A stretch of 56,791 bases of DNA from Desulfosoma sp. (lineage in GTDB: Bacteria > Desulfobacterota > Syntrophobacteria > Syntrophobacterales > DSM-9756), in assembly GCA_037481835.1 (NCBI GenBank), contig JBBFKW010000018.1, positions 49,322 to 106,112 on the forward strand, in the 5' to 3' direction. The first letter of the stretch is position 1; each line of letters starts with the position of its first letter. The notes under the pieces were generated by a model. The model did no database searches and was not told where the DNA came from. It saw nothing but the letters and a program-made list of their open reading frames with translations. Below, in pieces: positions 7,765 through 54,288 of the stretch. The position numbers were made by a program, and so were the translations under genes.

Positions 7765-8226
7765 TTACATGCTTTTCAGGAGATTAGCCATTTCCACCGC
7801 CGCCATGGCGGCTTCGAAGCCTTTGTTGCCCGCTTTGGATCCCGCCCGTTCGATGGCCTGTTCCAGCGTGTCCGTCGTGAGCACCCCAAAGGTGACGGGC
7901 ACGGAACTTTCCAGGCTGACCGTGGCGATGCCCTTGGCCACTTCGTTGGCGACGTAATCGAAGTGGGGGGTGGCCCCGCGAATGACGGCCCCGAGGCAGA
8001 TGACGGCATCGTAGCGGCCGGTTCCGGCGAGCTTTTTCGCCGCAAGGGGAATCTCGTAGGCTCCGGGCACCCGGAACACATGGATCCGGTCCTCCTCGGC
8101 GCCGGTTCTTTTCAAGGCGTCCAAGGCGCCTCCGAGGAGCCGCTCACAGATAAAGTCGTTGAATCGGCTGACCACGATGCCGAACGTGAGACCTTCGGAA
8201 CGCAAATGGCCTTCATACACTTTCAT
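7765..8226 (-). CDS. ribH: 6,7-dimethyl-8-ribityllumazine synthase
   Basis: [29 protein letters not shown]; start taken at MKVYEG (8226). Confidence 0.97.
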
Positions 8227-9451
8227 GCGTGACCCCTTCCGATGTGAAGCACTGGAGGACATGGCCCATCTTTCGGCATTTGGTTTTCAGATAATGGACG
8301 TTGCATTCGTTGGGTTCCACTTCGATGGGCACCCTTTCCGTCACGGTGATGCCATAGCCTTGGAGCCCTACGATTTTTTTCGGGTTGTTGGTCATGAGGC
8401 GCATTTTGCGCACCCCAAGGTCCACGAGGATCTGGGCCCCGATCCCGTAGTCCCTGAGGTCCGCCTTGAAGCCCAGGGCTTCATTGGCTTCCACGGTGTC
8501 ATAGCCCTGTTCCTGGAGCGCGTAGGCTTTGATCTTGTTGACAAGGCCGATGCCTCGACCTTCGTGATTCCTCATGTAGAGAAGCACTCCTCGGCCTTCC
8601 CGGTCGATCTGGCGCATGGCCGCCCGCAGTTGATCCCCGCAGTCGCACCGCAGGGAACCGAACACATCCCCGGTCAGGCATTCGGAATGCACCCGCACCA
8701 AAACCTCGTCGTTGGGCCCGAAAGATCCCTTGACCAAGGCCAGGTGAGTGAATTCGTCAATGGCGTTCGTGTAGGCGATGACTCGAAAATCCTCACCGTA
8801 CTTGCTGGGCAGTTTCGCCTCCGCCACGCGCTGCACGAAACTTTCGGTCCGCATGCGGTATTCGATGAGATCCGCGATGGTGACGATCTTGAGGTTGTGT
8901 TCGGCGGCGAACTTTTCCAAGTCCGGCATGCGGGCCATGGTCCCGTCGTCTTTCATGATTTCGCAGATGACACCCGCAGGTTTCAAACCGGCGAGCCGGG
9001 CCAGGTCCACGGACCCCTCGGTCTGCCCTGTTCGGACCAAGACACCCCCTTTTTTCGCTCGAAGCGGAAACACGTGGCCCGGACTGACGAGGTCTTCGGG
9101 TTTGGCGTCATCGGCGACGGCCGTAAGGATCGTGTGGGCGCGGTCGGCCGCGCTGATTCCCGTGGTGACCCCCGTGCGGGCTTCGATGGAGACGGTGAAA
9201 GCGGTTCCGAAAGAGGATTTGTTATGCTGGACCATCATGGGCAATTGGAGGCGGTCGACCCATTCGGGGGTGAGGGCCAGGCAGATGAGGCCCCGACCGT
9301 ATTTGGCCATGAAATTGATCGCTTCCGGAGTGACCTTTTCGGCGGCGATGCAAAGATCCCCTTCGTTTTCCCGGTCCTCGTCATCGACCAGGATGATCAT
9401 CTTGCCCTGTCGGATATCCTCAAGAGCTTCGGGAATGGTTGCCAACGGCAT
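8213..9451 (-). CDS. ribBA: Bifunctional DHBP synthase / GTP cyclohydrolase II
   Basis: [44 protein letters not shown]. Confidence 0.97.
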
Positions 9452-9537
9452 GAGAAAACTCCCTTCACGTGAAGAATCGGGAAGGCGGCACCTGCCCGGA
9501 TTCGCACCGCTTCGTGGACGGGGCGCGAGACGCGTGA

Positions 9538-9566
9538 CCTATAACACGGAGGCTGGGGAGACTCAA
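9538..9566 (-). promoter_or_regulatory. Putative internal sigma70 promoter for ribBA-ribH-nusB
   Basis: Minus strand TTGAGT-17 nt-TATAGG in the 127-bp gap. Confidence 0.4.
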
Positions 9567-9578
9567 GACGGCATTGGG

Positions 9579-10247
9579 TCAAAGGAAACCGTGGCGCCTG
9601 AGCAGCGCCGCATCCACACCGCCGGATTTTTCCGGGGAATCGCCGGAGCTGGGCTTTGTCCAAGCCCGGAGCATCTTTTCCACGTACTTGGCGATGATAT
9701 CCGTTTCGATATTGACACGCTCGCCCACGGCAAGCCTTCCCAGCGTGGTGACGTCCGCCGTGTGCGGGATGACGTTCACGTCGAAGCGGCCGGGAGCGCA
9801 GCCGTTGACCGTGAGGCTGACTCCATTGACGGCGATGGATCCCTTGGCGACGATGAAAACTGACAGTTCTTCCGGCACGGAGAAATAGAAGCGCCAGGAA
9901 CGGCCTTCCATTTTCTTTTGAATGAGGGTGCCCATGCCGTCCACGTGCCCCTGCATGAGGTGGCCTCCCAAGCGGTCGCCCAGCCGGAGTGCCCTTTCCA
10001 GGTTCACGACGGATCCCGGGGTCTTGGACCCCAAGGTGGTTTTGTCCAGCGTTTCTGCAGAAACATCCACGGAAAAGACGGGGCCGTCGAAGGCGACCAC
10101 GGTAAGGCAGGCGCCGTCCACGGCCACACTCTCACCAAGCGCCATGTCGGCAAAAACCCGGTCGGACCGAAGGGTCATGCGTGCGTCGACGCCGTGGCGC
10201 TCCGTGCGCAGCACGGTCCCTCGACATTCCACAAGCCCTGTAAACAT
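9579..10247 (-). CDS. ribE: Riboflavin synthase (alpha chain)
   Basis: Diagnostic MFTGLV N-terminus, [36 protein letters not shown]. Confidence 0.96.
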
Positions 10248-10346
10248 GGAAAGCCCTCCATATGCCCCGTGCGCCGGCCGGGGGGGCGCTGTGCTCACCC
10301 TGGAACAGGAAACCACCCCCACGAGACGTTTCCAGGGGTTGGTCGT

Positions 10347-11480
10347 TCAATAAAGGTGGGGGCGAAACCGGCCGCGAACGACAAAATCATCCCCCAGGCG
10401 CCGCACCTGACAGTCAACCCCGGGAACCGCATCTTTCATGAAATGTTTCGGCGCCCCCTGAAACATGGGCACCGCAAGGGAGTCCCCCAAGATCTTGGGC
10501 GCATAGAAGAAATAAAAATCGTCGGCCAACGCCCCGTCGAGAAAGGCCCCATGAATGCGTGCCCCGCCTTCCACGAGAACGCTGGTAATGGAACGACGCC
10601 CCAGTTCGTCGAGGAGGGCGGCGAGATTCAAGCCGTACGGTTCGCCCGTCGGGACGCCGAGCACATCCACCCCGTGGGGTGAGAACCGTTCCCGGACCTC
10701 TTTCACGACGGCATCCCCACACACCACAAGCACGGGGCTCTGACGCGCCGTCTTGACCAGTTGGGACGCCGCGGGCAGCCGTCCGTGGGTATCGAGGACG
10801 ATGCGAAGGGGCTGTTGGACCTTTTTCCGGCCCGTGCGGGCCGTGAGCAAGGGATCGTCGGCCAAGGCCGTGCCGATCCCCACAAGGACGGCATCTGCGG
10901 CGGCCCGCAGCTCATGGACCAGGCGGCGCGATCTTTCGTTGGTGACCCAGCGGGAATCTCCCGTACGGGTGGCTATGCGCCCGTCCAGGGTGGCGGCGCA
11001 TTTGAGCGTCACATAGGGGCGACCGAGTGTGACCCACTTGATGAACGGCTGATTCAGCTTTCGGCATTCCTCTTCCAAAACGCCTGAAACGACGTCGATT
11101 CCGGCCTGGCGCAACCGATCCGCACCGCCTCCCGTCACTTTCGGGTTAGGGTCGGCCATGCCGATCACGACCCGCCGGATTCCCGCTTCTAGGACGGCTT
11201 CCGTGCACGGCGGTGTTCGGCCATAGTGGTTGCAAGGTTCCAACGAGACGTAAAGGGTTGCCCCAAGGGCCGAATCCCCGGCTCGGCGCAGGGCGTTCAC
11301 TTCGGCGTGAGGCCCCCCGATGTGTTCATGAAAGCCTTCCCCCACCACACGGCCGTCCCGCACGACAACCGCTCCTACCATGGGGTTTGGGCTCGTTCTG
11401 CCCAAGCCCCTTCTGGCCAGACGAACGGCCCGCTGCATGAACCGTTCGTCCTCCGGTGTCCAGGCCATCATGCGCTCCAT
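10347..11480 (-). CDS. ribD: Bifunctional riboflavin deaminase/reductase
   Basis: SPNPMVGAV, HAEVNAL, LEPCNHYGRTPPC, DGRIAT, VLVEGG; start could be up to 12 nt further in. Confidence 0.96.
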   Translation of the reverse strand: MERMMAWTPEDERFMQRAVRLARRGLGRTSPNPMVGAVVVRDGRVVGEGFHEHIGGPHAEVNALRRAGDSALGATLYVSLEPCNHYGRTPPCTEAVLEAGIRRVVIGMADPNPKVTGGGADRLRQAGIDVVSGVLEEECRKLNQPFIKWVTLGRPYVTLKCAATLDGRIATRTGDSRWVTNERSRRLVHELRAAADAVLVGIGTALADDPLLTARTGRKKVQQPLRIVLDTHGRLPAASQLVKTARQSPVLVVCGDAVVKEVRERFSPHGVDVLGVPTGEPYGLNLAALLDELGRRSITSVLVEGGARIHGAFLDGALADDFYFFYAPKILGDSLAVPMFQGAPKHFMKDAVPGVDCQVRRLGDDFVVRGRFRPHLY

Positions 11481-11639: not shown

Positions 11640-12944
11640 TCAGCCGACGGAACTCGACGGCACGGCGTCAACGGGCCAGGGCGAAGTCACATCCTCAGCC
11701 GAGGCGTGCAACGGAAACTGACTACAAAAAGCAGCCACGTCTCGTTTGAGGGCGGCCAGGCGATTTTCGTCGCCGACGGCGTTGAGCGCCTGGTGGATGA
11801 ACCGGGCGATCTGGCCCATGTGAGAGGCGTCCATGCCGCGTGTGGTGACGGCGGCGGTCCCGATGCGAATCCCGCTGGCGATGTTGGGCTTTTGGGGGTC
11901 GAACGGAATGGAGTTCTTGTTCACCGTGATGCCCGCACGGTCCAGGGTCTCTTCGGCGATTTTTCCCGTAAGGCCCTTGTTCCTTAAATCCACGAGCATG
12001 AGATGGTTGTCGGTGCCGCCGGAGACCAGCCGATAGCCCAGGTTCAGCAATTCGGCCGCCAAGGTCTTGCTGTTGGCCATGATGCGCCGTTGGTATTCCT
12101 TGAACGCCGGCTGGAGGGCTTCGCGAAACGCCACGGCCTTGGCGGCGATGACGTGCATGAGGGGGCCGCCTTGGATGCCGGGGAAAATCTGGCTGTCCAG
12201 CTTCTTGCCGAGATCCAGGTCGTCGGACAGGATCAGACCGCCTCGAGGCCCCCGCAACGTCTTGTGGGTTGTGGAGGTGACGGCGTGGGCGTAAGGCACG
12301 GGATTGGGATGCAGTCCGGCGGCGACCAAACCGGCGATATGGGCCATATCGACCATGAGATAGGCTCCGATGTCGTCGCACACCTCGCGGAATCGGGCGA
12401 AGTCGATGGTGCGGGGATAGGCGCTTGCCCCCGCGACGATAAGTTTCGGGCGATGCTGCCGGGCGAGCCCAACCATCTGGTCAAAGTCGATGGTTTCCGT
12501 TTCGGGATGGACCCCATAGGAAACAACCCGGAACAGTCTGCCGGAAAAACTCACGGGACTGCCGTGGGTCAGGTGCCCGCCTTGGCGCAGGTCCATGCCC
12601 ATGATGACGTCCCCGGGTTCCAGGAGGGCGAAATAGACGGCCATATTGGCTTGGGATCCCGAGTGAGGCTGCACGTTGGCGTATCGGCAGCCGAAAAGCG
12701 CCTTGACACGTTCCTGGGCCAGCCTTTCGGCCACATCCACGTGTTCGCAGCCGCCGTAATAACGCCGTCCGGGATAGCCTTCGGCGTACTTGTTGGTGAG
12801 TACCGAGCCCTGGGCAATCCGCACGGCATCGCTGACGAAGTTTTCCGAGGCGATGAGTTCCAGCTTGGTGCGCTGCCGAGCCTCTTCGTCGCGAAGGACC
12901 TTGGCCATTTCCGGGTCCGTGTATTCCAATGACCGCAAGTTCAT
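11640..12944 (-). CDS. glyA: Serine hydroxymethyltransferase
   Basis: [39 protein letters not shown] overlap with the rpiB stop. Confidence 0.97.
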
Positions 12945-13393
12945 CGGTTGTTTCTCCACGAGGAAGGATTGTCCAACAGATCCAGACGACGGCAGTGGCG
13001 GCCGCCTTCGAAGTTTTCGGCCAGCCACACGTCCACGATTTCCAAGGCCAGATCCGGGCCGATGAAGCGCCCGCCAAGGCACAACACGTTGCTGTCGTTG
13101 TGGCGGCGGCTCATTTTGGCGGCATAGGGTTCCGAGGCGAGCACCGCCCGCACGCCGGGGACACGGTTGGCCGCCATGGACATGCCGATCCCGCTGCCGC
13201 ACACGAGGATCCCTCGATGGACGGCGCCCTGGGCCACGGCCCGAGCGACCGTGAAGGCGTAATCGGGATAGTCCACAGAATCCGCACTGTAAGTGCCGAT
13301 GTCTTGAACGTCATGGCCCCGATCGCGCAGGTGGGCGGCGATGATTTCCTTAAGATGGAAGCCGGCGTGGTCGGCGCCGATCATGATTTTCAT
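12941..13393 (-). CDS. rpiB: Ribose-5-phosphate isomerase B
   Basis: [37 protein letters not shown]. Confidence 0.96.
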
Positions 13394-13443: not shown

Positions 13444-14697
13444 TCAGGGTGCCCATTTTCGGAAGACCACCGTGCCGTTGGTCCCGCCGAATCCGAAAGA
13501 ATTGGACAGAGCGACCCGCACCTCGGTTTTTCGGGCCGTGTTGGGCACGTAGTCCAGGTCGCAGTCGGGATCGGGCGTCTCGTAGTTGATGGTCGGCGGG
13601 ATGGTGTCGTGATAGATCGCCAGCACCGTGTAAGCCCCTTCCACGCCGCCGGCGGCCCCCAACAGGTGGCCGGTCATGGACTTGGTGGAACTGACCGCGA
13701 GCTTGCCCGCATGATCGCCGAAAACGGTCTTGATGGCCACGGTTTCCAACCGGTCGTTGAGGTCGGTGGATGTGCCGTGGGCGTTGATGTAGTCCACGTC
13801 GTGCGGTGCGATGCCCGCATCGTTTAAGGCGCTGCGCATGCAAATGGCGGCACCCTCGCCGTCGGGAGCGGGCGCCGTCATGTGGTAGGCGTCGCCTGAG
13901 GCCCCAAAGCCGATAATCTCCGCATAGATCCGAGCGCCGCGTCGTTTCGCCCGTTCGGCCTCTTCCAGAATGAGCACCGCGCTGCCTTCTCCGAGGACGA
14001 ATCCGTCCCGGTCCTTGTCGAAGGGGCGCGAAGCCTTTTCCGGAGCATCGTTTCGTGTGGACAGGGCGCGCATGGCATTAAAACCCGCCACGCACAGGGG
14101 CGTGATGGTGGATTCCACTCCCCCGGTGATCATGATGTCCGCGGCCCCGTCCCGGATCAGGTGAAAGGCGTGGCCGATGGCATGGGTGCCCGCCGCACAG
14201 GCCGTTTGAATGGAAAGATTAGGGCCCTTGGCCCCGTGCTGGATGGAAATGAGCCCGGGGGCCATGTTGCCGATGAGCATGGGGATGAAAAACGGGCTGA
14301 TCTTGCGAGGCCCCGACTGCAGCAGGGTCTTGTGGCAATCTTCGATGGTGGTCAGCCCCCCCAGGCCGCAGCCCATCACGACGCCGGCTCGCGCGCTTTC
14401 CTCAGGGTCGATGGTCAAAGAGGCGTCTTTTACCGCCAGCTGAGCCGCTGCGATGGCGTAGGTGAGGAAAATGTCCATCTTGCGGAGGTCTTTCTTGGGG
14501 ATGAATTCTTCCGGCTTAAATCCTTTGACTTCCCCGGCGATTCGCGTGGCGAACCCTTCCGTGTCGAACCGCGTAATATAGCCGATGCCCGAGACGCCGT
14601 TGACCACGTTGGTCCAGTTTTGCTCCACTCCGACCCCCAAAGGTGTGACCAAGCCCAACCCCGTCACCACCACCCGCCGGCTTTCCCTTGTCGCCAT
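13444..14697 (-). CDS. fabF: 3-oxoacyl-ACP synthase II
   Basis: [15 protein letters not shown] (catalytic Cys), [29 protein letters not shown]. Confidence 0.96.
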
Positions 14698-14811: not shown

Positions 14812-15555
14812 CTATCCCATATACATCCCGCCGTTGACGTGCAACACCTGCCCCGTGATGTAGCCCGCCTCGTCGGAGGCGAGAAACCGCACGGCGGCGG
14901 CCACTTCTTCCGGTGTGCCCGTGCGGCCTGCGGGGATCTGTTCCAAGAGGGCCCTTCGGGCCTCTTCCGAAAGGCCGTGGGTCATTTCCGTTTCAATGTA
15001 GCCGGGAGCCACGGCGTTGACCGTAATGTTTCGGGAAATGACCTCCCGAGCGAGCGAGCGCGTCAAGCCCATGATTCCGGCTTTCGCCGCGGCATAATTG
15101 CACTGGCCGGCGTTTCCTGTAAAGCCCACAACGGACGTGATGGTGATGATGCGGCCGAAACGCTGCTTGAGCATGGGCCGCATGGCGGCCTGGCAGCACA
15201 GAAAGACGCCTTTGAGGTTGACGGCCAGGACGTCGTCCCAATCGGATTCCTGGAGCCGCGGAAAGATGTTGTCGCGAGTGATGCCGGCGTTGTTCACCAA
15301 CACGTCCAAGCGGCCGAAGGTGTCGGTGATGTCCTTGAAGGCCGCCTTAACGGCTTCGGGCTGGGCCACGTCGAAGGGACGGAGCACGGCCTGGGCGCCC
15401 CGTTGTGTGACGGATTCGGCAGTCTCTTCGGCTGCGTCCCGACCGGATCGGTAATTGATGATCACCGCAGAGCCCGGTTCGGCAAACGCCAAGGCGATGG
15501 CCCGGCCGATGCCGCGGCTTGCCCCCGTAATCAGGACCACCTTGCTCTGAGCCAT
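14812..15555 (-). CDS. fabG: 3-oxoacyl-ACP reductase
   Basis: TGASRGIG, NNAGITRD, GNAGQCNYAAAKAG, LHVNGGMYM; GAGGGAGG SD before ATG 15555. Confidence 0.95.
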   Translation of the reverse strand: MAQSKVVLITGASRGIGRAIALAFAEPGSAVIINYRSGRDAAEETAESVTQRGAQAVLRPFDVAQPEAVKAAFKDITDTFGRLDVLVNNAGITRDNIFPRLQESDWDDVLAVNLKGVFLCCQAAMRPMLKQRFGRIITITSVVGFTGNAGQCNYAAAKAGIMGLTRSLAREVISRNITVNAVAPGYIETEMTHGLSEEARRALLEQIPAGRTGTPEEVAAAVRFLASDEAGYITGQVLHVNGGMYMG

Positions 15556-15628: not shown

Positions 15629-16810
15629 TTAGCCGGCGCGTTTGACGCGTTCGATGAAGGCCGGGACGAATTCGAAGAGGTCCGCCACCACCCCGCACGT
15701 GGCCACATCGAAGATGGGCGCCTCCGGGTCCTTGTTGACGGCCACGATGATCTTTGAGCCCTGCATGCCCACGATATGCTGGATCGCTCCCGAGATGCCG
15801 ATGGCCATGTAAAGGGTTGGGGACACCGTCTGGCCCGTCTGGCCCACCTGGTGGGATACGGGGGCCCAGCCTTCTTCTACGGCACTACGGGAAGCGCCTA
15901 CGGCCCCTTTGAAGAGGCGCGCCAGTTCTTCCACCATGCGGAAGTTTTCCGCCTTCTGTAAGCCCCGGCCTCCCGAGATGATCACTTCGGCTTCCGAGAG
16001 TCTCGCCGTCGTGTCTTCTTCGGGAATCACCTCCAGGACCTGAACCCGCGTGCGGAAGACGTCTTCAGGCAACGCAACCCGTTGAATGCGGCCGTTTCGC
16101 GGCTGGATTTCCGGGCGCATGACTCGAGGGCGCACGGTGGCCATCTGGGGGCGGCCGTAGGGACAGATGATCGTGGCCATAACGTTGCCGCCGAAGGCCG
16201 GGCGCGTCTGCAACAGGAGGCCGTCCTCGCTGATGTCCAAATCGGTGCAGTCGGCCGTCAGGCCTGTCTGGAGCATGGCGGCCACGCGGGGGATGAAGGA
16301 TCGGCCCATGGATGTGGCCCCGGCCAGCAGAATTTCGGGCTTCTTGTCTCGAACCAGCTCCACTAGGCAGCGGCTGTAGGCTTCATCCGTAAAGTCCTTG
16401 AGAGCGGGGTGGTCCACAACGTAGACCACGTCGGCACCGTAGCGCAGGAGCTCTTCGGCGGCGCTGGAGAGGTTTTCGCCGAGCAGGACGGCGGCGCATT
16501 CCACTCCCTTCTTGTCGGCAAGGCGCCGTGCGGCGCTCAGCAGTTCGTAGCTCACGCGGTGCACCGTGCCGCGCCGCCATTCCGCAAAGGCCCACACCCC
16601 GCGGTACGCCGCTGCATCGCTGACGACCCCGGCGCCCACGTCGGGAAGGCGGATCGCCTGAAATTCGCACGTGTCCACGCACATGCCGCACAGCGTGCAG
16701 TCGTCCGAGACCACCGCGTGGGTTTCGGGAACCGAAATGGCGCCCACGGGGCACACATCTTGACAGACGCCGCAGGCGGTGCACTTTTCGAGATCGATCA
16801 GCGCTTTCAT
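15629..16810 (-). CDS. etfA: ETF alpha subunit with an N-terminal 2x[4Fe-4S] ferredoxin domain (CarE-like)
   Basis: [12 protein letters not shown] and [41 protein letters not shown]. Confidence 0.93.
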
Positions 16811-17598
16811 AGACCCGGAACCTTGGCTTCCTTGAGATATTGGTAGAGTTTTTCCACTTGGTCGGCCACAGGACCTTCAAGCATCCACCGGTCCGCCCGC
16901 TTGGGGGGGCTGAAAAGGCGGACGACCTGGGTGAAGGATCCTTTGAGGCCCACCCGATCTTCGGGAAGGCCCACGTCGGCTGCGCTCCACACGGGAACGG
17001 TCGCTTTCTTGGCACGCATCTTGTGCTTGACGGACGGCAACCGAGGGTCTCCCACATCGCGCAGGACGGTCACCAGGGCGGGCAGGGGCAGGCGCCACAC
17101 TTCCGTGCCTTCGTCGGTTTTTCGAACGACCCTGAGGTGCCCTTCGTCTTCCAGCTCCACCTGCTTGACAAAGGTGGCGTAGGGGATGTCCAAAAGAGTG
17201 GCCAATTCGGGGCCGACCTGGGCCGTATCGCCGTCCACGGCCTGCTTGCCGCAAAAGACCAAGGAGACGTCGCCCAGCTTGCGAATGGCCGCGGCAAGGG
17301 CCGTGGCCGTCGCCCACGTGTCCGCCCCGGCGAAAGCCCGATCGCTCAACAGCACGGCGTCGTCCACACCGCGGGAAAGAACGTCTCTCAAGGCTTCTTC
17401 CGCCTGGGGCGGCCCCATGGTCATCACGGTGACGTGGGCGCCGTGCCGGTCCTTGAGGCGAAGGGCCGCTTCCACGGCGAACAGGTCGAAGGGGTTGATG
17501 ATGGATTCCACCCCTTGGCGCACCAAGGTGTGGGTGTGAGGGTCGATGCGCACATTCTTGGCATCGGGGACCTGCTTGATACAGACGACGATTTTCAT
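16807..17598 (-). CDS. etfB: ETF beta subunit, bifurcating-type signature
   Basis: VCIKQVPD, INPFD, AFAGADTWAT, GKQAVDGDTAQVGP; ATGA overlap with etfA. Confidence 0.94.
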   Translation of the reverse strand: MKIVVCIKQVPDAKNVRIDPHTHTLVRQGVESIINPFDLFAVEAALRLKDRHGAHVTVMTMGPPQAEEALRDVLSRGVDDAVLLSDRAFAGADTWATATALAAAIRKLGDVSLVFCGKQAVDGDTAQVGPELATLLDIPYATFVKQVELEDEGHLRVVRKTDEGTEVWRLPLPALVTVLRDVGDPRLPSVKHKMRAKKATVPVWSAADVGLPEDRVGLKGSFTQVVRLFSPPKRADRWMLEGPVADQVEKLYQYLKEAKVPGL

Positions 17599-17623
17599 CG
17601 CTCCATCCGTACGCCTTGAAGGG

Positions 17624-18793
17624 TTAGAAGAAGGTATCCTTCATGCGGCCGTATTCCTTGTTGAGTTCCTGGCCGATGATGTTGCGCTGGATTTCGTTGG
17701 TCCCTTCGTAAATCTGAAGGATCTTGGCGTCACGAAACATTTTTTCCACAGGGTAGTCCCGCATGTATCCGTAGCCGCCCAGCACCTGGACCGCCTCCGT
17801 GGTGACTTCCATGGCCGTGTCGCTGGCGAAGACCTTGCACATGGCCGCCACCTTGCCCGCATCGGGCGGGTCCGTGTCCAAGTGACGGGCGGCGGCGTAG
17901 ATCAAAGCTCGAGCCGCTTCCGTCTTGATGGCCATGTCCGCCAGCTTGTGCTGAATGGCCTGAAAGGTGATGATGGGCTTGCCGAACTGGATCCTTTTGC
18001 GGGCGTATTCCACGGCGACGTCCAAAGCGCCTTGGGCCAGTCCTACGCCGAGGGCGCCGATGCCCGGGCGGGACTTGTCGAAGGTTTTCATGGCGATGAT
18101 AAACCCCATGCCTTCCCGGGCGATCAAACGGTCCTTGGGGATCCGGCAGTCCTGGAAGACCAGTTCCCGGGTCGCCGATGCGCGGATGCCCAGTTTCTTT
18201 TCCTTTTTGCCGAAGGAGAACCCGGGGTCGCCTTTTTCCACGATGAAGAAACTGGCGCCTCGAGGCCCTTTGGTCTTGTCCGTGACGGCAAGGACGCTGT
18301 AGATGTCCGCTTCACCGCCGTTGGTGATCCACTGTTTCGTGCCGTTCAAAACGTAAAAATCCCCGTCCTTGACGGCCGTCGTCCGGATTGCCGTCACATC
18401 GCTTCCCGCTCCCGATTCCGTCACCGCAAAGGCCGCCAACCTCTTTCCGGCGGCGATGTCCGGGAGGTAAGCCGCCTTTTGCGCTTCAGAGCCGTAGAGC
18501 AAAATGGGGTAGGCGCCGAGGCCGCTGGCGGCGTAGGACGTCGCGACCCCGATGCACGCTCGAGCCAGTTGCTCCACGGCCAAGCAGTTTTCGAAGATCC
18601 CACCGCCCAAACCGCCGTATTCTTCGGGAATGCAGACGCCGAACAAATCGGATTGGGCCAGAATTTTCAAAATCTCCGTGGGGAACTCCTCGGCTTCATC
18701 CAACTGGGCCCGCACCGGTCGGATCTTTTCCCGGGCGATCTGTTCTGCCAGTTCCTGGATCATCTTTTGTTCGTCGGTCAGAAAGTAATTCAA
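17624..18793 (-). CDS. Acyl-CoA dehydrogenase (Bcd/CarC-like)
   Basis: [60 protein letters not shown] start overlaps the plsX TGA with a GGAGGTGA SD. Confidence 0.93.
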
Positions 18794-19915: not shown

Positions 19916-20098
19916 TTACACCTCTTCCGTGACCAAGACTTGCTGCCCCTTGTAGTATCCGCAGGACGGGCACACGCGATGGGGCAGGCACAGTTCACGG
20001 CACTGGGGGCAGGTGGAAAAGGAAGGAGCCGTCAGATGGAGATGGCTCCGCCGCTTGTCTCTTCTCGATTTGGACGTTCTTCTCTTGGGTACGGCCAT
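19916..20098 (-). CDS. rpmF: 50S ribosomal protein L32 (zinc-ribbon form)
   Basis: [19 protein letters not shown]...CPQC...[10 protein letters not shown]. Confidence 0.97.
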
Positions 20099-20123: not shown

Positions 20124-20663
20124 TCAGGGATTTCCAAGCTTGAAGTTCCTCAGGGCTTCGAACGCCGAAGATCCCTTCCGGTTTCGGCACAGGCACGGTT
20201 CCCGATTGAGGTTGGCGCCGCACCCCGGACACAAGCCCCGACAGTGTTCCGAACACAAACAGCGAATGGGAAGCTCCAGAAAGACCTCTTCGGCGATCAT
20301 GCGGTCCACCTCGAGGATCTCCCCGTCGAAGAATTCATAGTCCAGCTCGTCGGGCTCCAGTTCCACTTCCTCTTCACTGGGCCCCACACTTTCCCGAAAC
20401 AGGAGCACCCTCACGGGACGCACGATCTCCGAGAGGTATTCGTCCAGGCACCGGTCGCACGTCAGGGTCAGCTTTCCCGTTAGGGTTCCCGTGACTTCCA
20501 AGTGGTCGGGCTTTTTGTGGATTTCCAGATCCACGTTGAGTGGCCGCGCCAGGGAAAACCCCTTGGGGTCGTTGGGCGGCAGCATGCGTTCCAGGCGCTC
20601 TTGGGTCCAATGGACATGGAGGATGCGCCCGGATTCCGGGATTTCGTCAACGCGTATCTTCAT
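20124..20663 (-). CDS. yceD: DUF177/YceD family protein
   Basis: CDRCL and [18 protein letters not shown] motifs; upstream of rpmF. Confidence 0.93.
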
Positions 20664-20695: not shown

Positions 20696-20723
20696 AGTAT
20701 AGGCATCGCCCTTGTCGTGTCAA
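20696..20723 (-). promoter_or_regulatory. sigma70 promoter of the yceD-rpmF-plsX-fab operon
   Basis: Minus strand TTGACA-16 nt-TATACT. Confidence 0.7.
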
Positions 20724-20756: not shown

Positions 20757-21368
20757 CTACCGGATGAGGCACACCTCCTCGAAGGGGCGGCGCATCTTGC
20801 GAGGCGGCAGCACGGCGTCGGGGCGCTTTTTGCCGACGGCAATAAGCATCACAGGGAGGTACTTGGGATCCAGGCCGAAGAGTCGGCGCACACCGTCTAT
20901 GTCGAAGCCGTCCATGGGGTGAGTGTCCCAGCCCTGATCCAAGGCGGCCAGCATGAAATTCATGGCGAACAGGCCCACGTTTCGGGAGGCGAATCCCACG
21001 GCGCGCTCGCCGCTGTAGAGCTTTTCGGCCGCCGCCATGGACCGGGGGACCGCCTCGGCGGGCATATAGCCCTTGGCGACCCAGTCGTCAAAAACATCCT
21101 GGCTTTCCTCGTATTGGCGCGTATTCCCAAAGAGGACCAAGACGGCCGAAGCTTCCGTGATCTTTGGCTGGTTCATGGCCACGGCACGCAGCTTCTCCTT
21201 TTGTTCCTGAGAAAGGACGACCACGACTTTCCATGGCTGGAGGTTGAAAGACGATGGGGCCAGCTTGGCCGCTCTATAAATTCGACGGATATCGGCTTCC
21301 GTGATGGAAACGGTGGGGTCGAAAAAATTCACCGAGCGTCGCGTCTCGTTGAGGGTGCTCCATTCCAT
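20757..21368 (-). CDS. Nitroreductase family flavoprotein
   Basis: RRSVNFF, APSSFNLQPW, GWDTHPMDGFD. Confidence 0.92.
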   Translation of the reverse strand: MEWSTLNETRRSVNFFDPTVSITEADIRRIYRAAKLAPSSFNLQPWKVVVVLSQEQKEKLRAVAMNQPKITEASAVLVLFGNTRQYEESQDVFDDWVAKGYMPAEAVPRSMAAAEKLYSGERAVGFASRNVGLFAMNFMLAALDQGWDTHPMDGFDIDGVRRLFGLDPKYLPVMLIAVGKKRPDAVLPPRKMRRPFEEVCLIR

Positions 21369-28355: not shown

Positions 28356-28520
28356 TTTCTACTTGGCTTTTTTCCGTCGGTTCGTGTAAGGTACAACACC
28401 GCGGTTCCCCGGACCCGGGGGGGCTTTATGGGACGGACCTCGAAGCCATGTCGGCGGGGGACCGCGGGCGACGTCGTGAAGGGTGAAGCGGGTTGTGACA
28501 CAGCAAAAGGAGGACGGAAC

Positions 28521-29318
28521 GTGAACATTGTGGTGCTACTCAAGCAAACGCCGGACACGGAATCGGTCATTCGCATTGCTCCGGACGGCCAGTCCATTGT
28601 GACGCAGGATCTCAAGTGGATCATCAATCCCTATGACGAATTTGCCGTGGAAGCGGCGCTTCGCCTGAAGGAAAAGCACGGCGGCACGGTGACGATCGTC
28701 AGCTGGGGGCCTCAGCGCGTGGTGGAATCCATTCGCACGGCCTTGGCCATGGGGGCCGACAAGGGCGTTCTTTTGGACGATGACGCCTTGGAGGGAAGCG
28801 ACAGCCTGGGGGTGGCTCGGGCTTTGGCGGCGGTCGTACAAGCCTTGCAACCCGACATCGTGTTGTGCGGGTCCCGGGCCGTGGATTACGATTTGGCCCA
28901 GCGGGGCCCCATGGTGGCCGAACTTTTGGGCTGGCCTCATTTGGGCCTGGCGGTCTCCTTGGATTCCGACGGCTCTTCCGTGACCATCGAACGGCCCATC
29001 GAAGGCGGCAAGGTGACTTTGCAGGCTTCCCTTCCGGCCTTGGTGACCATGGGTGGTTCCCATGCCGTGTGGAATCCGCGTTATGCGTCCCTTCCCGGCA
29101 TCATGAAGGCCAAGAAGAAGCCCCTGGAGATGAAAAAGCTTGCCGACATCGGTTTGAGCGCCGAGGAGTGTGGGGCGCAGGCGGCGAAGATCCGCATGGT
29201 GTCCTTGGAAATGCCGCCGGAACGCAAACCCGGTCGGATCATCGACGACGGGTTGGATACGGAAGGCAAGGCGGCGGCTTTGGTCAAGGCCTTGCATGAA
29301 GAAGCCAAGGTTATCTAG
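28521..29318 (+). CDS. etfB: ETF beta subunit (canonical, non-bifurcating type)
   Basis: LKQTPD, INPYDEFAVE, RTALAMGAD, PRYASLPGIMKAKKKP; GTG start after AAAGGAGG. Confidence 0.93.
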   Translation: MNIVVLLKQTPDTESVIRIAPDGQSIVTQDLKWIINPYDEFAVEAALRLKEKHGGTVTIVSWGPQRVVESIRTALAMGADKGVLLDDDALEGSDSLGVARALAAVVQALQPDIVLCGSRAVDYDLAQRGPMVAELLGWPHLGLAVSLDSDGSSVTIERPIEGGKVTLQASLPALVTMGGSHAVWNPRYASLPGIMKAKKKPLEMKKLADIGLSAEECGAQAAKIRMVSLEMPPERKPGRIIDDGLDTEGKAAALVKALHEEAKVI

Positions 29319-29374
29319 GGGTTCGGAATTTCCTGAACGGAGAGAAACGCTCTGGCAGCGTAAGGAGATGTGAA

Positions 29375-30361
29375 ATGGCCGATTGTGTGGTATCGATTGC
29401 TGAATTTCGTGCGGGAAACTTCCGTCGGGTGTCGTTTGAGGTGGCCAGCGAAGCGCGCAAGGTGGCCGATGCTTTGAATCTCCCCCTCTACGGCATCGCC
29501 GTCGGCTCCGGGGTGGGCGACAAGGCCAAGGAATTGGGCTGGTACGGCGTGGATAAGGTTTTTGTGGCCGATGATCCGGCGTTGGAGCATTACGTGCCCG
29601 AACTTTACATCCCGGTCGTCGCCTCCCTCATTGAACGGTGGACCCCTGCAGCGGTGTTCTTGCCCGCCTCGGTGGACGGCAAGGATCTCAGCGCTCGGCT
29701 GGCGGCCAGGTTGCAAACGGGGCTCGCCCAGGACTGCATCCAGGTTGTGTGCGAGGGCGGGACCGTCAAGGCCAAGCGGCCGATTTTCGCGGGAAAGTGC
29801 CTCGCTTGGTGTGAATGGGCCGATGGGGCGTTGCCCATGATTTCATGCCGCCCCAACGTCATGGACTGTAAGGATGCGGATGCAACGCGGCAGGCGGACG
29901 TGGAAAAGGTTGCGGTGGCTGTCCCTGAAGCCCGTTCCAAGGCGTTTGGGGTGGAACTGGATACCACGGGCAAGGTGGAACTGACGGAAGCGGAAATCAT
30001 CGTCTCGGGCGGCCGCGGCATGAAGGCGGCGGAAAACTTTGTCATTTTGGAACAGCTGGCCAAAGAACTCGGGGCCGCTGTGGGGGCTTCCCGAGCGGCG
30101 GTGGATGCCGGCTGGCGGCCCCATTCGGACCAGGTGGGGCAGACCGGCAAGGTGGTCAACCCGAATCTCTACATCGCCGTGGGGATCTCCGGTGCGATCC
30201 AACATCTGGCGGGCATGGGTTCTTCCAAGTACATCGTGGCCGTGAACAAGGATCCGGAAGCGCCCATCTTCACCAAGGCCGATTATGGCATCGTGGAAGA
30301 CCTGTTCAAATTCATTCCGGCTTTTACGGAAGAAGTGCGCAAATTGAAGAGCACGTGCTGA
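29375..30361 (+). CDS. etfA: ETF alpha subunit (canonical)
   Basis: [41 protein letters not shown]. Confidence 0.94.
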
Positions 30362-30577
30362 ACTGCCGCGGGCCGGCTCGGTCGGCCCGCAGCCTTTCGG
30401 CACGACCCGTTGTCGCGAGGGGTTGGAGAAGGACGGGGCGGGAAAGTCGACCCGCATGGGCCTTGTGCCCGGAGGTGCGGGATTTGGCCCTGCCCTTCCG
30501 GCATGGGATCGGCCCATGGAAGGCCTGAGAAGGCGTCTTAGGGGCTTTGTGGAAGGGGTGTCCGGAGGAGGGAGTGC

Positions 30578-32272
30578 ATGGATCGCCCGTGGTATCGCCA
30601 TTACAACGGAAGGGTTCCTCACGAGATTGATTTTCCCAATTGGCCGCTGCCGGTTCTTGTGGCCAGGACGGCCGAAAAATACGCGGGAAACACGGCGACG
30701 GAATTTTTCGGCGCCAAGTTGACTTATAGACAGCTCTGGGACCAAGTGCTGCGCATGGCCGCCGCTCTTCGGGGCTTGGGCGTGGGCAAGGGCACCCGGG
30801 TGGCCATCATGCTCCCCAACTGTCCCCAGACCATGATCGCCTATTACGCCACGCTCTATCTCGGCGGGGTGGCCGTCATGACCAACCCCATGTACGTGGA
30901 GCGGGAAATGGAGCACCAGTGGAACGATTCGGGTTCCGAGGTGCTTTTTGCTTTGGACCATTTGTATCCGAAAGTGGAAAAGGTCCTGCCTTCCACGAAG
31001 ATCCGCACCGTCGTGGTGACCAGCCTTCGGGAATACCTTCCCTTTCTCTTTAAGCATCTCTATCCGCTCAAGGCGAAAAAGCAGAATCTTTTCATGGCGG
31101 TTCCCTACGACGGCCGTCGCGTGGTGAACTTTTCCGAGATTCTCGCCAAAGCGTCGCCCATAAAGGATCCGTGCGAGGCGACCCTTGACGACCTGGCCCT
31201 GCTCCAATACACCGGCGGGACCACGGGCGTCTCCAAAGGGGTCATGCTGAGCCACCGGAACATCTTGGCCAATGTTCTGCAGGTGGCCGCATGGTTCCCT
31301 GATTTCCGCTGGGGCCGGGAACGGCTCGTGGCCATTCTGCCTTTCTTTCACGTGTTCGGCATGACCGTGTGCATGAACTTTTCCCTTTACGGCGGGGCCA
31401 CCACCATTGTGGTGCCGCGGTTCGATGCCGACGAATTCTTGAAGCTCCTTCATAAGAGCAAGCCCACCTTGTTTCCGGGGGTCCCCACCATCTACGTGGC
31501 GTTGCTCAACCACCCCAAGGTCAAGGATCACGATTTGTCCTCCATCCGGTTCTGCATCACGGGTTCGGCGCCCATGCCGGTGGAGGTGCTCACCAAATTC
31601 GAAGAAATGACCGGCTGCGTCATCGTGGAGGGGTACGGCCTTTCGGAAGCCAGCCCGGTGACCCACGTGAATCCCATCAGCGGGCTGAGAAAGCCGGGGT
31701 CCATCGGAATTCCCGTGCCGAGCACCGATGCGCGCGTGGTGAGCTTGGAAGACGGGCTGAGCGACGTTGCCGTCGGTCAGCCTGGAGAATTGGTCGTCAA
31801 AGGACCTCAGGTCATGCTGGGCTACTGGAACATGCCGGAGGAGACGGCGTCCACGTTGCGCGACGGCTGGCTGCACACGGGCGACATCGCCACCATGGAC
31901 GAAGACGGCTACTTTTTCATCGTGGATCGCAAGAAAGACATGATCATTGTCGGCGGCTACAATATCTATCCCAGGGAAATCGACGAAGTGCTCTATACCC
32001 ATCCCAAGGTGTTGGATGCGGTCACCGTTGGGGTTCCCGATCCCTATCGCGGCGAAACGGTGAAGGCTTTCATCGTGCCCAAGCCGGGCGAGACCGTCAC
32101 GGAGGAAGAGATCATCCAGTTTTGCAAATCCAAGCTGGCGGCCTACAAAGTGCCCAAAGCGGTGGAAATTCGGGAATTCCTCCCCAAAACCATGGTGGGA
32201 AAAATCCTTCGCAAGGAACTCCGGGCGGAAGAACTGCGTAAGATCCAAGAAAAGAAACCTTCCGCCCCCTAG
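30578..32272 (+). CDS. fadD: Long-chain fatty acid--CoA ligase
   Basis: LQYTGGTTGVSKG, EGYGLSEASP, WLHTGDIA, DRKKDMI, KTMVGK. Confidence 0.93.
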   Translation: MDRPWYRHYNGRVPHEIDFPNWPLPVLVARTAEKYAGNTATEFFGAKLTYRQLWDQVLRMAAALRGLGVGKGTRVAIMLPNCPQTMIAYYATLYLGGVAVMTNPMYVEREMEHQWNDSGSEVLFALDHLYPKVEKVLPSTKIRTVVVTSLREYLPFLFKHLYPLKAKKQNLFMAVPYDGRRVVNFSEILAKASPIKDPCEATLDDLALLQYTGGTTGVSKGVMLSHRNILANVLQVAAWFPDFRWGRERLVAILPFFHVFGMTVCMNFSLYGGATTIVVPRFDADEFLKLLHKSKPTLFPGVPTIYVALLNHPKVKDHDLSSIRFCITGSAPMPVEVLTKFEEMTGCVIVEGYGLSEASPVTHVNPISGLRKPGSIGIPVPSTDARVVSLEDGLSDVAVGQPGELVVKGPQVMLGYWNMPEETASTLRDGWLHTGDIATMDEDGYFFIVDRKKDMIIVGGYNIYPREIDEVLYTHPKVLDAVTVGVPDPYRGETVKAFIVPKPGETVTEEEIIQFCKSKLAAYKVPKAVEIREFLPKTMVGKILRKELRAEELRKIQEKKPSAP

Positions 32273-36202: not shown

Positions 36203-36994
36203 ATGGATCTGGGTTTGAAGGGCAAAGTGGCTTTTGTGGCCGGAGCCAGCCAGGGTTTGGGGAAGGCCGTGGCGATGGAATTGTGCCGGGAAGGGGCCAA
36301 GGTGGCCATCTGCGGGCTGGACGACCCGGAACTGCCCAAGGCCGTGGAAGACATCGCGGGTGCAACGGGCGGGGAGGTGATCGGCATTCCGGCTGATGTC
36401 ACCGTATCGGAGCAGGCGAAGAACTTCATCCGCAAGGGATTGGATCATTTCGGCACCGTGGACATCCTGGTGAACAACGCCGGAGGCCCTCCGGCCAAGA
36501 CGTTTCTCGAAATCGACGATGAACTGTGGCATTTCGGGTTTCGGCTGAACCTCATGAGCACCATTGTGATGACCCGGGAGGCTGTTCCGGTGATGATGGA
36601 AAAGCGATGGGGCCGCATTATCAACATGACTTCCGTGTCCGTGAAGCAACCCATCGACGGCTTGATCCTGTCCAACACCATCCGATCCGGCGTGGTGGGT
36701 TTGGCCAAGACTTTGTCCAATGAACTGGCCCCGTACAACATTACGGTGAACAACGTGTGCCCCGGCTACACCTTGACCGAACGCGTGCGGAGCCTTGCCG
36801 TGGTCACGGCCCAAAAGGAAGGGAAGACGCCCGAAGAGATCATCGATCGATGGCGGGCGACCATTCCCATGGGAAGACTGGGAACGCCGGAGGAATTTGC
36901 CGCTCTCGTGACGTTCTTGGCTTCCGAAAGGGCCGGCTACATCACGGGAGCCTCCATCCACATTGACGGCGGGTATTACAAAGGGGTGATGTGA
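36203..36994 (+). CDS. SDR family oxidoreductase (atypical, NNAGGPP class)
   Basis: LGLKGKVAFVAGASQGLG, NNAGGPP, LILSNTIR replacing YxxxK, YITG. Confidence 0.9.
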   Translation: MDLGLKGKVAFVAGASQGLGKAVAMELCREGAKVAICGLDDPELPKAVEDIAGATGGEVIGIPADVTVSEQAKNFIRKGLDHFGTVDILVNNAGGPPAKTFLEIDDELWHFGFRLNLMSTIVMTREAVPVMMEKRWGRIINMTSVSVKQPIDGLILSNTIRSGVVGLAKTLSNELAPYNITVNNVCPGYTLTERVRSLAVVTAQKEGKTPEEIIDRWRATIPMGRLGTPEEFAALVTFLASERAGYITGASIHIDGGYYKGVM

Positions 36995-37005
36995 AAGGAT
37001 CGGCC

Positions 37006-38004
37006 ATGAAGAGCAGGCGTCGGGCGCGCATCCGTTCGGTGGGGCGGTATCTCCCCGAACGGAAACTGACCAATAAAGATTTGGAAAAGATGGTGGACAC
37101 CACCGACGAGTGGATCGTCACACGCACGGGAATCCGGGAGCGGCGTATCTTGGAACCCGGCCTGGGCTGCTCTTTCATGGCTTCGCGGGCCGCCCAGGAA
37201 TGCTTGGAGCGGGCCGGTGTGGCGGCTTCCGAAGTGGACGCCATTATTGTGGGAACCGTCACACCGGACATGTTTTTCCCCTCCACGGCCTGCCTGGTTC
37301 AGAGGGACATCGGCGCGGGAAAGGCATGGGGGTTCGATTTGTCGGCGGGATGTTCCGGCTTCGTCTTTGCCATGACCACGGGAGTCCAGATGATCGAATC
37401 GGGCCGATACGATAAGGTTTTGGCCATCGGCGCCGATGTCATGAGCAGCATCATCGATTATACGGACCGAAACACATGCGTGCTCTTCGGGGATGCCGCC
37501 GGAGCCGTGCTTCTGGAGCCCTGTGAGGACGAAGACTACGGGGTTCTGGACTTTATTCAGAGGATCGATGGGGCCGGAGAGCCGCACTTGCACATGAAAG
37601 CCGGGGGCAGCCGCCGCCCCGCCAGCATGGAAACGGTCCAGGCGCGGGAGCACTACGTGTACCAGGAAGGAAAGAAGGTCTTCAAATTCGCCGTGACCGA
37701 AATGGCCGACGTCTCGGTCAAGATCCTGGAACGCAACGGTCTATCGGGAAAGGATGTCAAGGTGTTCATCCCGCACCAGGCCAATTTGAGGATCATCGAG
37801 GCGTGCGCCAATCGCATGGGATTGGACATGGACCGGGTGATCATCAACATCGACCGGTACGCCAACACCACCGGGGCCACGATTCCCCTGTGCCTCTACG
37901 AAGCCACGGTGGAAAAAAACCTTCTGGAAAAGGGCGACTACCTGGTCATGTCGGCCTTCGGAGCGGGCTTTACCTGGGGCAGCATCCTCGTGCGCTGGAT
38001 ATGA
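37006..38004 (+). CDS. fabH: 3-oxoacyl-ACP synthase III
   Basis: WIVTRTGIRERR, DLSAGCSGF, LFGDAAGA, IPHQAN, ANTTGA, FGAGFTWG. Confidence 0.93.
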   Translation: MKSRRRARIRSVGRYLPERKLTNKDLEKMVDTTDEWIVTRTGIRERRILEPGLGCSFMASRAAQECLERAGVAASEVDAIIVGTVTPDMFFPSTACLVQRDIGAGKAWGFDLSAGCSGFVFAMTTGVQMIESGRYDKVLAIGADVMSSIIDYTDRNTCVLFGDAAGAVLLEPCEDEDYGVLDFIQRIDGAGEPHLHMKAGGSRRPASMETVQAREHYVYQEGKKVFKFAVTEMADVSVKILERNGLSGKDVKVFIPHQANLRIIEACANRMGLDMDRVIINIDRYANTTGATIPLCLYEATVEKNLLEKGDYLVMSAFGAGFTWGSILVRWI

Positions 38005-53756: not shown

Positions 53757-54209
53757 ATGCTGCTCAAAATGAAAGAAAGCAAAGGCTTCACCCTGGTGGA
53801 ACTCATGATCGTCGTGGCCATCATCGGCATCCTGGCCGCAGTGGCCGTACCGTTCTACCAGCGCTACGTAAAGAAAGCTCGCCTTACGAGCCTCGTTTTT
53901 CCCGGATTGCACGCGATTCAGAACAGCATCTCTAGTTATTATAGTGTGAAAGGTTCAGCTCCTGATTTGTCAGATGACGATATTCTAGAATCAATGGCAA
54001 GAGACGCTGACACGGCTTGTTTTGACGTGGAACAGGGAGATAGTACCCTTTCCCTTAAGATCACGCTAAATACTAGTAGAAATGCGAGCAAATGCGGTCC
54101 TCTGGCAAACTTGACGCCCAATTCCTTTAGCGTTGTCGCCACAGAAAATGCAGGAAAGCTGACCTGGTCATTTAGCGGTGGTCTCGCGAAGGAATTGGGA
54201 TTAGAGTAG
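53757..54209 (+). CDS. pilA: Type IVa major pilin
   Basis: Class III signal [42 protein letters not shown]. Confidence 0.95.
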
Positions 54210-54233
54210 GTGGTCTTTACAGTATCGTAGCAT

Positions 54234-54269
54234 TTACCCCTAGGGGCTAGCGGCCACCCCTAGGGGTAA
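54234..54269 (+). terminator. Hairpin after pilA (attenuator or mRNA stabiliser)
   Basis: TTACCCCTAGGGG-N10-CCCCTAGGGGTAA; no U-tract. Confidence 0.6.
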
Positions 54270-54288
54270 GCCGTGATGTGAGAGACCC

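Follow-up and report, generated by a model that had tools for sequence, protein, structure and literature searches.

The stretch of DNA analyzed here, referred to below as the window, comprises 56,791 nucleotides (nt) of a Desulfosoma sp. contig (JBBFKW010000018.1, positions 49,322 to 106,112; assembly GCA_037481835.1). Its minus strand carries the cluster yceD-rpmF-plsX-acd-etfB-(ferredoxin)etfA-fabG-fabF-rpiB, in which the genes for a protein of the acyl-CoA dehydrogenase (ACAD) family, Acd, and for the two subunits of an electron-transferring flavoprotein, EtfB and a ferredoxin-EtfA fusion, stand among genes for type II fatty-acid synthesis. The initial annotation of this DNA had placed acd, etfB and ferredoxin-etfA between plsX and fabG, and domain searches confirmed this position. 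From sequence comparisons, we think it likely that Acd, EtfB and ferredoxin-EtfA together constitute the enoyl reductase of type II fatty-acid synthesis. The features of the cluster are the following.

20696–20723, minus strand: promoter-like TTGACA-16-TATACT 5′ of yceD, with 11 of 12 consensus matches; a possible operon start
20124–20663, minus strand: yceD (DUF177; PF02620, 91 bits), first gene of the cluster, kept upstream of plsX in related loci
19916–20098, minus strand: open reading frame that we take to be rpmF (ribosomal protein L32), from sequence features of L32
18790–19893, minus strand: plsX, phosphate acyltransferase (PF02504, 215 bits; TIGR00182, 222 bits, below the cut-off of 243)
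17624–18793, minus strand: acd, ACAD-family acyl-thioester dehydrogenase/reductase with three ACAD Pfam domains, the proposed catalytic subunit
16807–17598, minus strand: etfB, small Etf subunit (PF01012), of the bifurcating type by similarity
15629–16810, minus strand: etfA, CarE-like, with an N-terminal 2×[4Fe-4S] ferredoxin domain (Fer4 twice, PF01012, PF00766)
14812–15555, minus strand: fabG, 3-oxoacyl-acyl carrier protein (ACP) reductase (TIGR01830, 342 bits; cut-off 298)
13444–14697, minus strand: fabF, beta-ketoacyl-ACP synthase II (TIGR03150, 656 bits)
12941–13390, minus strand: rpiB (TIGR01120, 205 bits), last gene of the cluster and found after fabF in most related loci

The acd, etfB and etfA genes and their products

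The gene junctions and protein motifs are as the initial annotation had described them. The TTG start codon of acd overlaps the TGA stop codon of plsX as cc-TTGA, with GGGAGGTGA located 3 nt upstream, and etfB and etfA overlap by ATGA; the translations contain AGADTWAT and GKQAVDGDTAQVGP in EtfB, and TRPAFGGN in EtfA. As read from the DNA, the acd-etfB-etfA operon is translationally coupled. The gap between fabG and fabF is 114 nt and holds no acpP gene, and fabF is present in the genome as a single copy (one tblastn match). The promoter-like site before yceD is weak evidence for an operon start, because similar sites are no more frequent here than in shuffled sequences (2 as compared to 1.5 ± 1.0). 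Terminator-like sites numbered 14, with 9.9 ± 3.6 in the shuffles, and the operon boundaries are unsupported beyond the one good −35/−10 pair before yceD. The nearest named relative, Desulfacinum hydrothermale DSM 13146, has the same gene order and an Acd that is 91% identical to that of the window.

The three ACAD domains of Acd were detected with 122 (PF02771), 97 (PF02770) and 190 bits (PF00441). The closest solved relative of the protein is C. difficile Bcd (5OL2_C, 415 bits); 4L1F_A scored 371 bits and CarC (6FAH) 311 bits. Residues Y362, E363, G364 and T365 (YEGT) are invariant in 43 orthologues and align with IYEGT of 5OL2_C; we take the Glu of this motif to be the catalytic base. In addition, 25 positions of Acd are conserved in at least 90% of the 43 orthologues and differ in eight paralogues encoded in the same genome.

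Both Etf subunits scored far higher against solved Etfs that bifurcate than against those that do not. EtfB matched five solved bifurcating chains, those of CarD (6FAH_B), A. fermentans (4KPU_B), LctB (7QH2_B), C. difficile (5OL2_B) and 7KOE (7KOE_A), with 207 to 246 bits, whereas solved non-bifurcating Etfs scored 104 bits or less; DTWAT and DGDTAQVG of EtfB are common to CarD and the A. fermentans EtfB. EtfA matched solved bifurcating Etfs with 267 to 374 bits, as compared to 171 bits for the best non-bifurcating one. Its best match, CarE (6FAH_A), extends over residues 7–392 with the ferredoxin domain included. EtfA contains CxxCxxCxxxC twice, with eight Cys residues in the two Fer4 motifs, and PF00766 (120 bits).

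In its make-up, the module is like CarCDE of Acetobacterium woodii (6FAH), which consists of an ACAD, an EtfB and an EtfA with an N-terminal 2×[4Fe-4S] domain and reduces aromatic enoyl-CoA in caffeate respiration. CarCDE is the best solved match for both EtfB (246 bits) and EtfA (374 bits), but Acd itself is nearer to Bcd than to CarC. The Bcd-EtfAB complexes of C. difficile (5OL2) and Acidaminococcus fermentans (4KPU/4L1F), which act on C4 CoA esters in fermentation, share the catalytic YEGT with Acd, and their Etf subunits scored 218–236 and 267–279 bits; their EtfA, however, has no ferredoxin domain. The best NCBIfam equivalogs were the acryloyl-CoA reductase models AcrC, AcrB and AcrA (NF042972, NF042971 and NF042970), with scores of 450, 223 and 352 bits against cut-offs of 640, 475 and 600. 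Because all three matches are under the cut-offs, the module falls outside any named equivalog.

Enoyl reductases and the distribution of Acd

To our knowledge, only four classes of enoyl-ACP reductase have been described for type II fatty-acid synthesis: FabI, FabL, FabV and FabK. The initial annotation had noted that none of them is encoded in the window, and searches with family models extended this to the whole genome, the assembly of which is 99.37% complete. While fabH, fabD, fabG, fabF, fabZ and acpP are all present, no canonical enoyl-ACP reductase was found with the FabI, FabK, FabV and FabL models. The FabI model NF005717 gave nothing in the genome at E ≤ 1e-40, and the best match to the FabL model NF005975 was FabG, the 185 bits of which remain below the cut-off of 328. 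For FabK (TIGR03151, NMO fold) the best match had just 22 bits, and the module is without an NMO domain. FabV (PF12241) had no match in the genome; the same domain search does work, since it recovered FabV at 358 bits in G147, a different genome of this phylum. The genome has only six matches to short-chain dehydrogenases/reductases (SDRs); for the three further full-length ones among them that were scanned, the 25 best families include neither a FabI nor a FabL model.

We then searched one and the same set of 201 genomes of the phylum (Thermodesulfobacteriota) for Acd, FabI, FabK-like proteins and FabV. As Acd orthologues we counted matches with a minimum of 481 bits and 57% identity; the class below them, the paralogues, reaches no more than 442 bits. 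FabI was taken as present from 237 bits upward, with SDR noise at 160 bits or less; FabK-like scores are continuous in this phylum. An Acd orthologue is encoded in 101 of the 201 genomes. FabI is encoded in 31, only one of which also has Acd. In 46 genomes, which belong to 19 families, Acd is present but there is no FabI, FabV, or FabK-like match at E ≤ 1e-25. The orthologues form a tight group of their own, separate from Bcd, and are 57–93% identical across the phylum, whereas the nine other ACAD paralogues of the Desulfosoma genome are at most 47% identical to Acd. In a quick tree, the five closest of these paralogues grouped together and were separated by a long branch from the orthologues, which were short-branched and roughly followed taxonomy.

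As an independent phylum, we examined 101 Nitrospirota genomes around the genome of locus L062, for which completeness figures were not given. Acd is present in 43 of them, always with at least 556 bits and with no match between E values of 1e-100 and 1e-167; FabI is present in 44 (at least 229 bits) and true FabK in seven (at least 484 bits, other NMO matches reaching at most 156 bits). FabI and FabK are absent from all 43 genomes with Acd and occur together in one of the others. Ferredoxin-EtfA (at least 357 bits) was found in 42 of the 43 genomes with Acd, also when on a different contig, as compared to none of the other 58. Thus, acd is co-inherited with ferredoxin-etfA and mutually exclusive with FabI and FabK. 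Moreover, the Acd orthologue is the only ACAD, as judged by a search with the C-terminal domain, in five small genomes, four of Nitrospirota and one a 1.1-Mb Omnitrophota chromosome. In these five genomes the 3-hydroxyacyl-CoA dehydrogenase domain gave only partial matches of 26–27 bits, all but one of which lie within the first 77 of the 180 domain positions; the sixth (G258, 27.5 bits) covers positions 2–122.

The linkage to fab genes is not peculiar to the strain, a point that the initial annotation had raised. Scanning one genome per species, we confirmed 598 relatives of Acd and kept the best 80, which are 64–91% identical. In 61 of these 80 loci, acd has fab genes within 6 kb on its own strand, in 50 cases together with etfBA and in 11 without adjacent etfBA. 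That the arrangement recurs in so many orthologous loci argues that it is not due to chance. The usual order is yceD-plsX-fabH-acd-etfB-FdetfA-(fabD)-fabG-acpP-fabF-rpiB, where FdetfA denotes ferredoxin-etfA, and it was seen in Syntrophobacteraceae, Desulfobulbaceae (e.g., Desulfogranum marinum DSM 2058), Thermodesulfatator, Nitrospirota, Omnitrophota and metagenome-assembled genomes labeled Actinomycetota. The unlinked orthologues are nested among the linked ones in the quick tree, and 10 unlinked loci that were examined have housekeeping neighbors and no beta-oxidation gene.

The position occupied by acd-etfBA in these operons is used by FabK elsewhere. We fetched the best FabK-like locus from 20 genomes without Acd and from 20 genomes with Acd. 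In 10 of the 20 loci from genomes without Acd, FabK is found within yceD-plsX-(fabH)-FabK-fabD-fabG-acpP-fabF-rpiB, in the slot of acd-etfBA; these 10 are every fetched locus of this group at 372 bits or more (372–502), and for G157, which is among them, the contig stops after yceD-FabK. In contrast, the best FabK-like gene of the genomes with Acd (238–379 bits) was near a fab gene in none of 20 cases. Nine of these loci have AMP-dependent ligases, enoyl-CoA hydratases, a CoA transferase, or unrelated genes as neighbors. Because ligases, enoyl-CoA hydratases and a CoA transferase adjoin it, the NMO subgroup in Acd genomes (L098, L104, L106 and others) is suggested by its gene context to have a CoA-linked role outside fatty-acid synthesis. 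A genome without Acd that belongs to the same genus as genomes with Acd (G070) was considered as a case of replacement within a genus and rejected, its FabK-like gene lying outside the fab operon.

Proposed reaction and alternative explanations

The interpretation of the complex as an enoyl reductase, put forward in the initial annotation, is supported by comparative genomics: by the missing FabI, FabK, FabL and FabV, the linkage to fab genes, the exclusion of FabI and FabK, and the slot shared with FabK. The complex would stand in for FabI or FabK and perform the last step of the elongation cycle, the conversion of a trans-2-enoyl thioester to a saturated acyl thioester. The mechanism is most likely that of the homologous Bcd-EtfAB and CarCDE. 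NADH would reduce the FAD bound in EtfB; one electron would then pass via the FAD of EtfA domain II and the Acd FAD to the enoyl substrate, while the other, low-potential electron would reach ferredoxin via the two [4Fe-4S] clusters of the EtfA ferredoxin domain. Two rounds would convert 2 NADH, the enoyl thioester and oxidized ferredoxin to 2 NAD+, the acyl thioester and reduced ferredoxin. That EtfB and EtfA score nearest to solved bifurcating Etfs is the reason for suggesting a bifurcating mechanism. If the complex is indeed an enoyl reductase, then the genomic context argues for an ACP-bound substrate, which we regard as fairly probable, and the co-reduction of ferredoxin, by analogy with the characterized complexes, has an even or slightly better chance; the two in combination fall somewhat short of an even chance. 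We tentatively suggest that about half of the sampled Thermodesulfobacteriota, 43 of the 101 Nitrospirota, Omnitrophota and others may possess a fifth, flavin-based and bifurcating class of enoyl-ACP reductase.

Several observations weigh against an enoyl reductase, or against its being the general solution in these organisms. The closest characterized relatives (Bcd 5OL2 and CarC 6FAH) all use CoA thioesters, fabH, fabD and acpP are missing from the operon of the window, and in 19 of the best 80 loci acd lies away from fab genes, seven times with etfBA only and 12 times alone. It had been asked whether genomes with the module lack canonical reductases. This holds for FabI, which accompanies Acd in one of the 101 Thermodesulfobacteriota with Acd (G001) and in none of the 43 Nitrospirota, and in the Nitrospirota it holds for FabK as well; a FabK-like NMO protein (E ≤ 1e-60), however, is present in 32 of the 101, among them a member of the family of the Desulfosoma genome (G178, 265 bits), and the single genome of the 201 that has FabV (G147) also has Acd. 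The FabK-like proteins of Acd genomes could be working reductases. Moreover, 12 of the 201 genomes, and eight of the 101 Nitrospirota, have none of the candidates. Of five of these 12 that were examined, four have a complete fab operon in which the slot is empty (L138, L140, L141 and L142, in G021, G073, G018 and G034), and therefore the absence of known reductases is not in itself proof; probably, a further, unknown enoyl reductase exists in the phylum. In G078 an ACAD that is 43% identical to Acd, below the threshold for orthologues, adjoins fabG-acpP-fabF (L139, G078:C96, 3765–4811), so that the idea of a fab-linked ACAD may extend beyond the tight orthologous group. Finally, the Fisher P values for the Nitrospirota, 1e-20 and 9e-28, overstate the case because related genomes are not independent samples, although the pattern itself is free of exceptions.

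Could the genes have a role outside the elongation cycle? An ordinary catabolic or fermentative Bcd-EtfAB, acting as a butyryl-, crotonyl- or acryloyl-CoA dehydrogenase/reductase and placed among fab genes without functional meaning, would fit with C. difficile Bcd as the best solved relative of Acd, with AcrC, AcrB and AcrA as the best NCBIfam matches and with the 19 loci that are not fab-linked; in a Nitrospirota genome paper, such genes are assigned to butyrate degradation (PMC5812927). This is very improbable, since every equivalog score is under its cut-off, the fab linkage is kept over several phyla, Acd excludes FabI and FabK and shares the operon slot of FabK, five small genomes that have no real 3-hydroxyacyl-CoA dehydrogenase encode no other ACAD, and beta-oxidation genes are missing from the surroundings of all 10 unlinked loci examined. 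Primer supply, in which a short enoyl-CoA such as crotonyl- or 3-methylcrotonyl-CoA would be reduced to an acyl-CoA that FabH condenses, appears the least probable of the alternatives, even though it would account for the position of acd directly after fabH in many loci, and the relatives of Acd use CoA substrates. In the window fabH is not adjacent to acd, several loci (L054, L072, L074, L091 and L092) have acd between plsX and fabD without fabH, and the missing reductase and the exclusion of FabI and FabK would be left unexplained. A further alternative runs the reaction in the oxidative direction, with an acyl-ACP dehydrogenase that forms trans-2-enoyl-ACP for anaerobic unsaturated fatty-acid synthesis or lipid modification, following the back-tracking logic that FabX of Helicobacter pylori reportedly employs in unsaturated fatty-acid synthesis. 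The ACAD fold does accept carrier-bound substrates: prolyl-ACP dehydrogenase (4IRN) scored 197 bits against Acd, and the RedW, PigA and MbtN models 259, 246 and 85 bits. These ACADs are distant relatives of Acd but provide a precedent for a phosphopantetheine-tethered substrate in this fold; they are oxidative enzymes of secondary metabolism and are not known to have a bifurcating-type Etf encoded alongside. Also in line with an oxidative role, the genome has one FabZ and one FabF, and no FabA or FabB appeared among the tblastn matches to the window's FabZ/FabF, no FabA family search having been made. Yet there would be no reason for an enzyme of desaturation to exclude FabI and FabK or to share the slot of FabK, and the genome would still be left without any enoyl reductase; we consider this alternative quite improbable.

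A different matter is whether an enoyl reductase of this kind would bifurcate electrons. The electrons of NADH might simply pass through the Etf to Acd, with the ferredoxin domain serving as a wire that connects the complex, in either direction, with another partner, or ferredoxin might itself be the donor. Bifurcation is not readable from sequence, 11 of the 80 loci have a fab-linked acd without adjacent etf genes, and four genomes of one family (G030, G069, G104 and G198) have an Acd that is 59–63% identical and no EtfA match at E ≤ 1e-70. Since EtfB and EtfA both fall with the solved Etfs that bifurcate, and since 42 of the 43 Nitrospirota genomes with Acd have inherited ferredoxin-EtfA along with it, we regard a reductase without bifurcation as unlikely, though as an alternative of some substance.

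An enoyl reductase made of Acd, EtfB and ferredoxin-EtfA would have little in common with those described so far. FabI, FabL and FabV are nicotinamide-dependent SDRs that transfer hydride without a flavin; they share only the proposed function with the module, show no homology to it, and FabI is anti-correlated with Acd (both are found in one of the 31 FabI genomes of the phylum and in none of the 44 of Nitrospirota). FabK (enoyl-ACP reductase II, an FMN enzyme) shares with the module its proposed function and its place in the operon, after plsX/fabH and before fabD/fabG, but it is a single polypeptide of unrelated fold and cofactors, without an Etf or an iron-sulfur domain. Unlike CarCDE, the module is located within a fab operon and excludes FabI and FabK. 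The enzyme type is thus known, and it is the role that is new; the module is widespread among strict anaerobes. The initial annotation knew of no such step in type II fatty-acid synthesis, and no description of an ACAD/Etf enoyl reductase for this pathway was found in a full-text literature collection whose coverage does not extend to subscription journals.

Enoyl-ACP reduction is one of the steps at which the pathway is controlled, and it is a classic target of drugs. If our interpretation is correct, the ACAD/Etf complex would represent a mechanistically different fifth class, the annotation gap would be closed for the 46 Thermodesulfobacteriota and the 43 Nitrospirota described above, and the assignment of these genes to butyrate degradation, which is probably mistaken, would be corrected. 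Electron transfer from NADH to the enoyl/acyl couple releases sufficient energy for the reduction of ferredoxin, as in Bcd-Etf. In sulfate reducers and syntrophs living under energy limitation, lipid synthesis would be linked to energy conservation through ferredoxin, and, with bifurcation, each two-carbon elongation would return one reduced ferredoxin, energy that FabI and FabK dissipate. Such a step would also bear on the interpretation of lipid hydrogen-isotope signatures of anaerobes, and engineered fatty-acid production would gain a reductase that yields reduced ferredoxin.

Other genes of the window and the genome

The remaining fab genes of the genome are scattered, with fabD on contig C8, fabZ on C17 and the sole acpP on C1 (C1:285933–287101, L015), outside the fab operon, near the contig end and downstream of a regulator that is presumably TetR-like, from its sequence. 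There are two copies of fabH, one in the window (36991–38004, plus strand) and a second on contig C10. The copy in the window is translationally coupled to an SDR gene (36203–36994, plus strand), the stop codon of which overlaps the fabH start. In an alignment, this SDR has Ser and Arg where FabG of the window has the catalytic Tyr and Lys. It was considered as a FabI or FabL and rejected, as neither model is among its 25 best families; possibly, the pair at 36203–38004 is a second initiation module, or the SDR is inactive. A nitroreductase gene at 20757–21368, upstream of yceD, was likewise considered as a hidden reductase and rejected, having no homologue in any of 80 related loci.

A second etfB-etfA pair is found at 28428–30361 of the window (plus strand), preceded by mnmG and followed by an AMP-dependent acyl-CoA ligase gene (region 28428–32272). 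It encodes no ferredoxin domain, is 40–43% identical to the fab-linked pair, and is probably a catabolic Etf. The other ACAD paralogues of the genome and this second Etf pair could serve catabolism.

Downstream of rpiB lie glyA and then a riboflavin operon, at 7765–11480 on the minus strand and directly after glyA, the genes of which we take from their sequences to be ribD, ribE, ribBA and ribH. No tRNA gene was found across the whole window. The G+C content is 0.47 at positions 54001–56000, as compared to about 0.60 elsewhere in the window.

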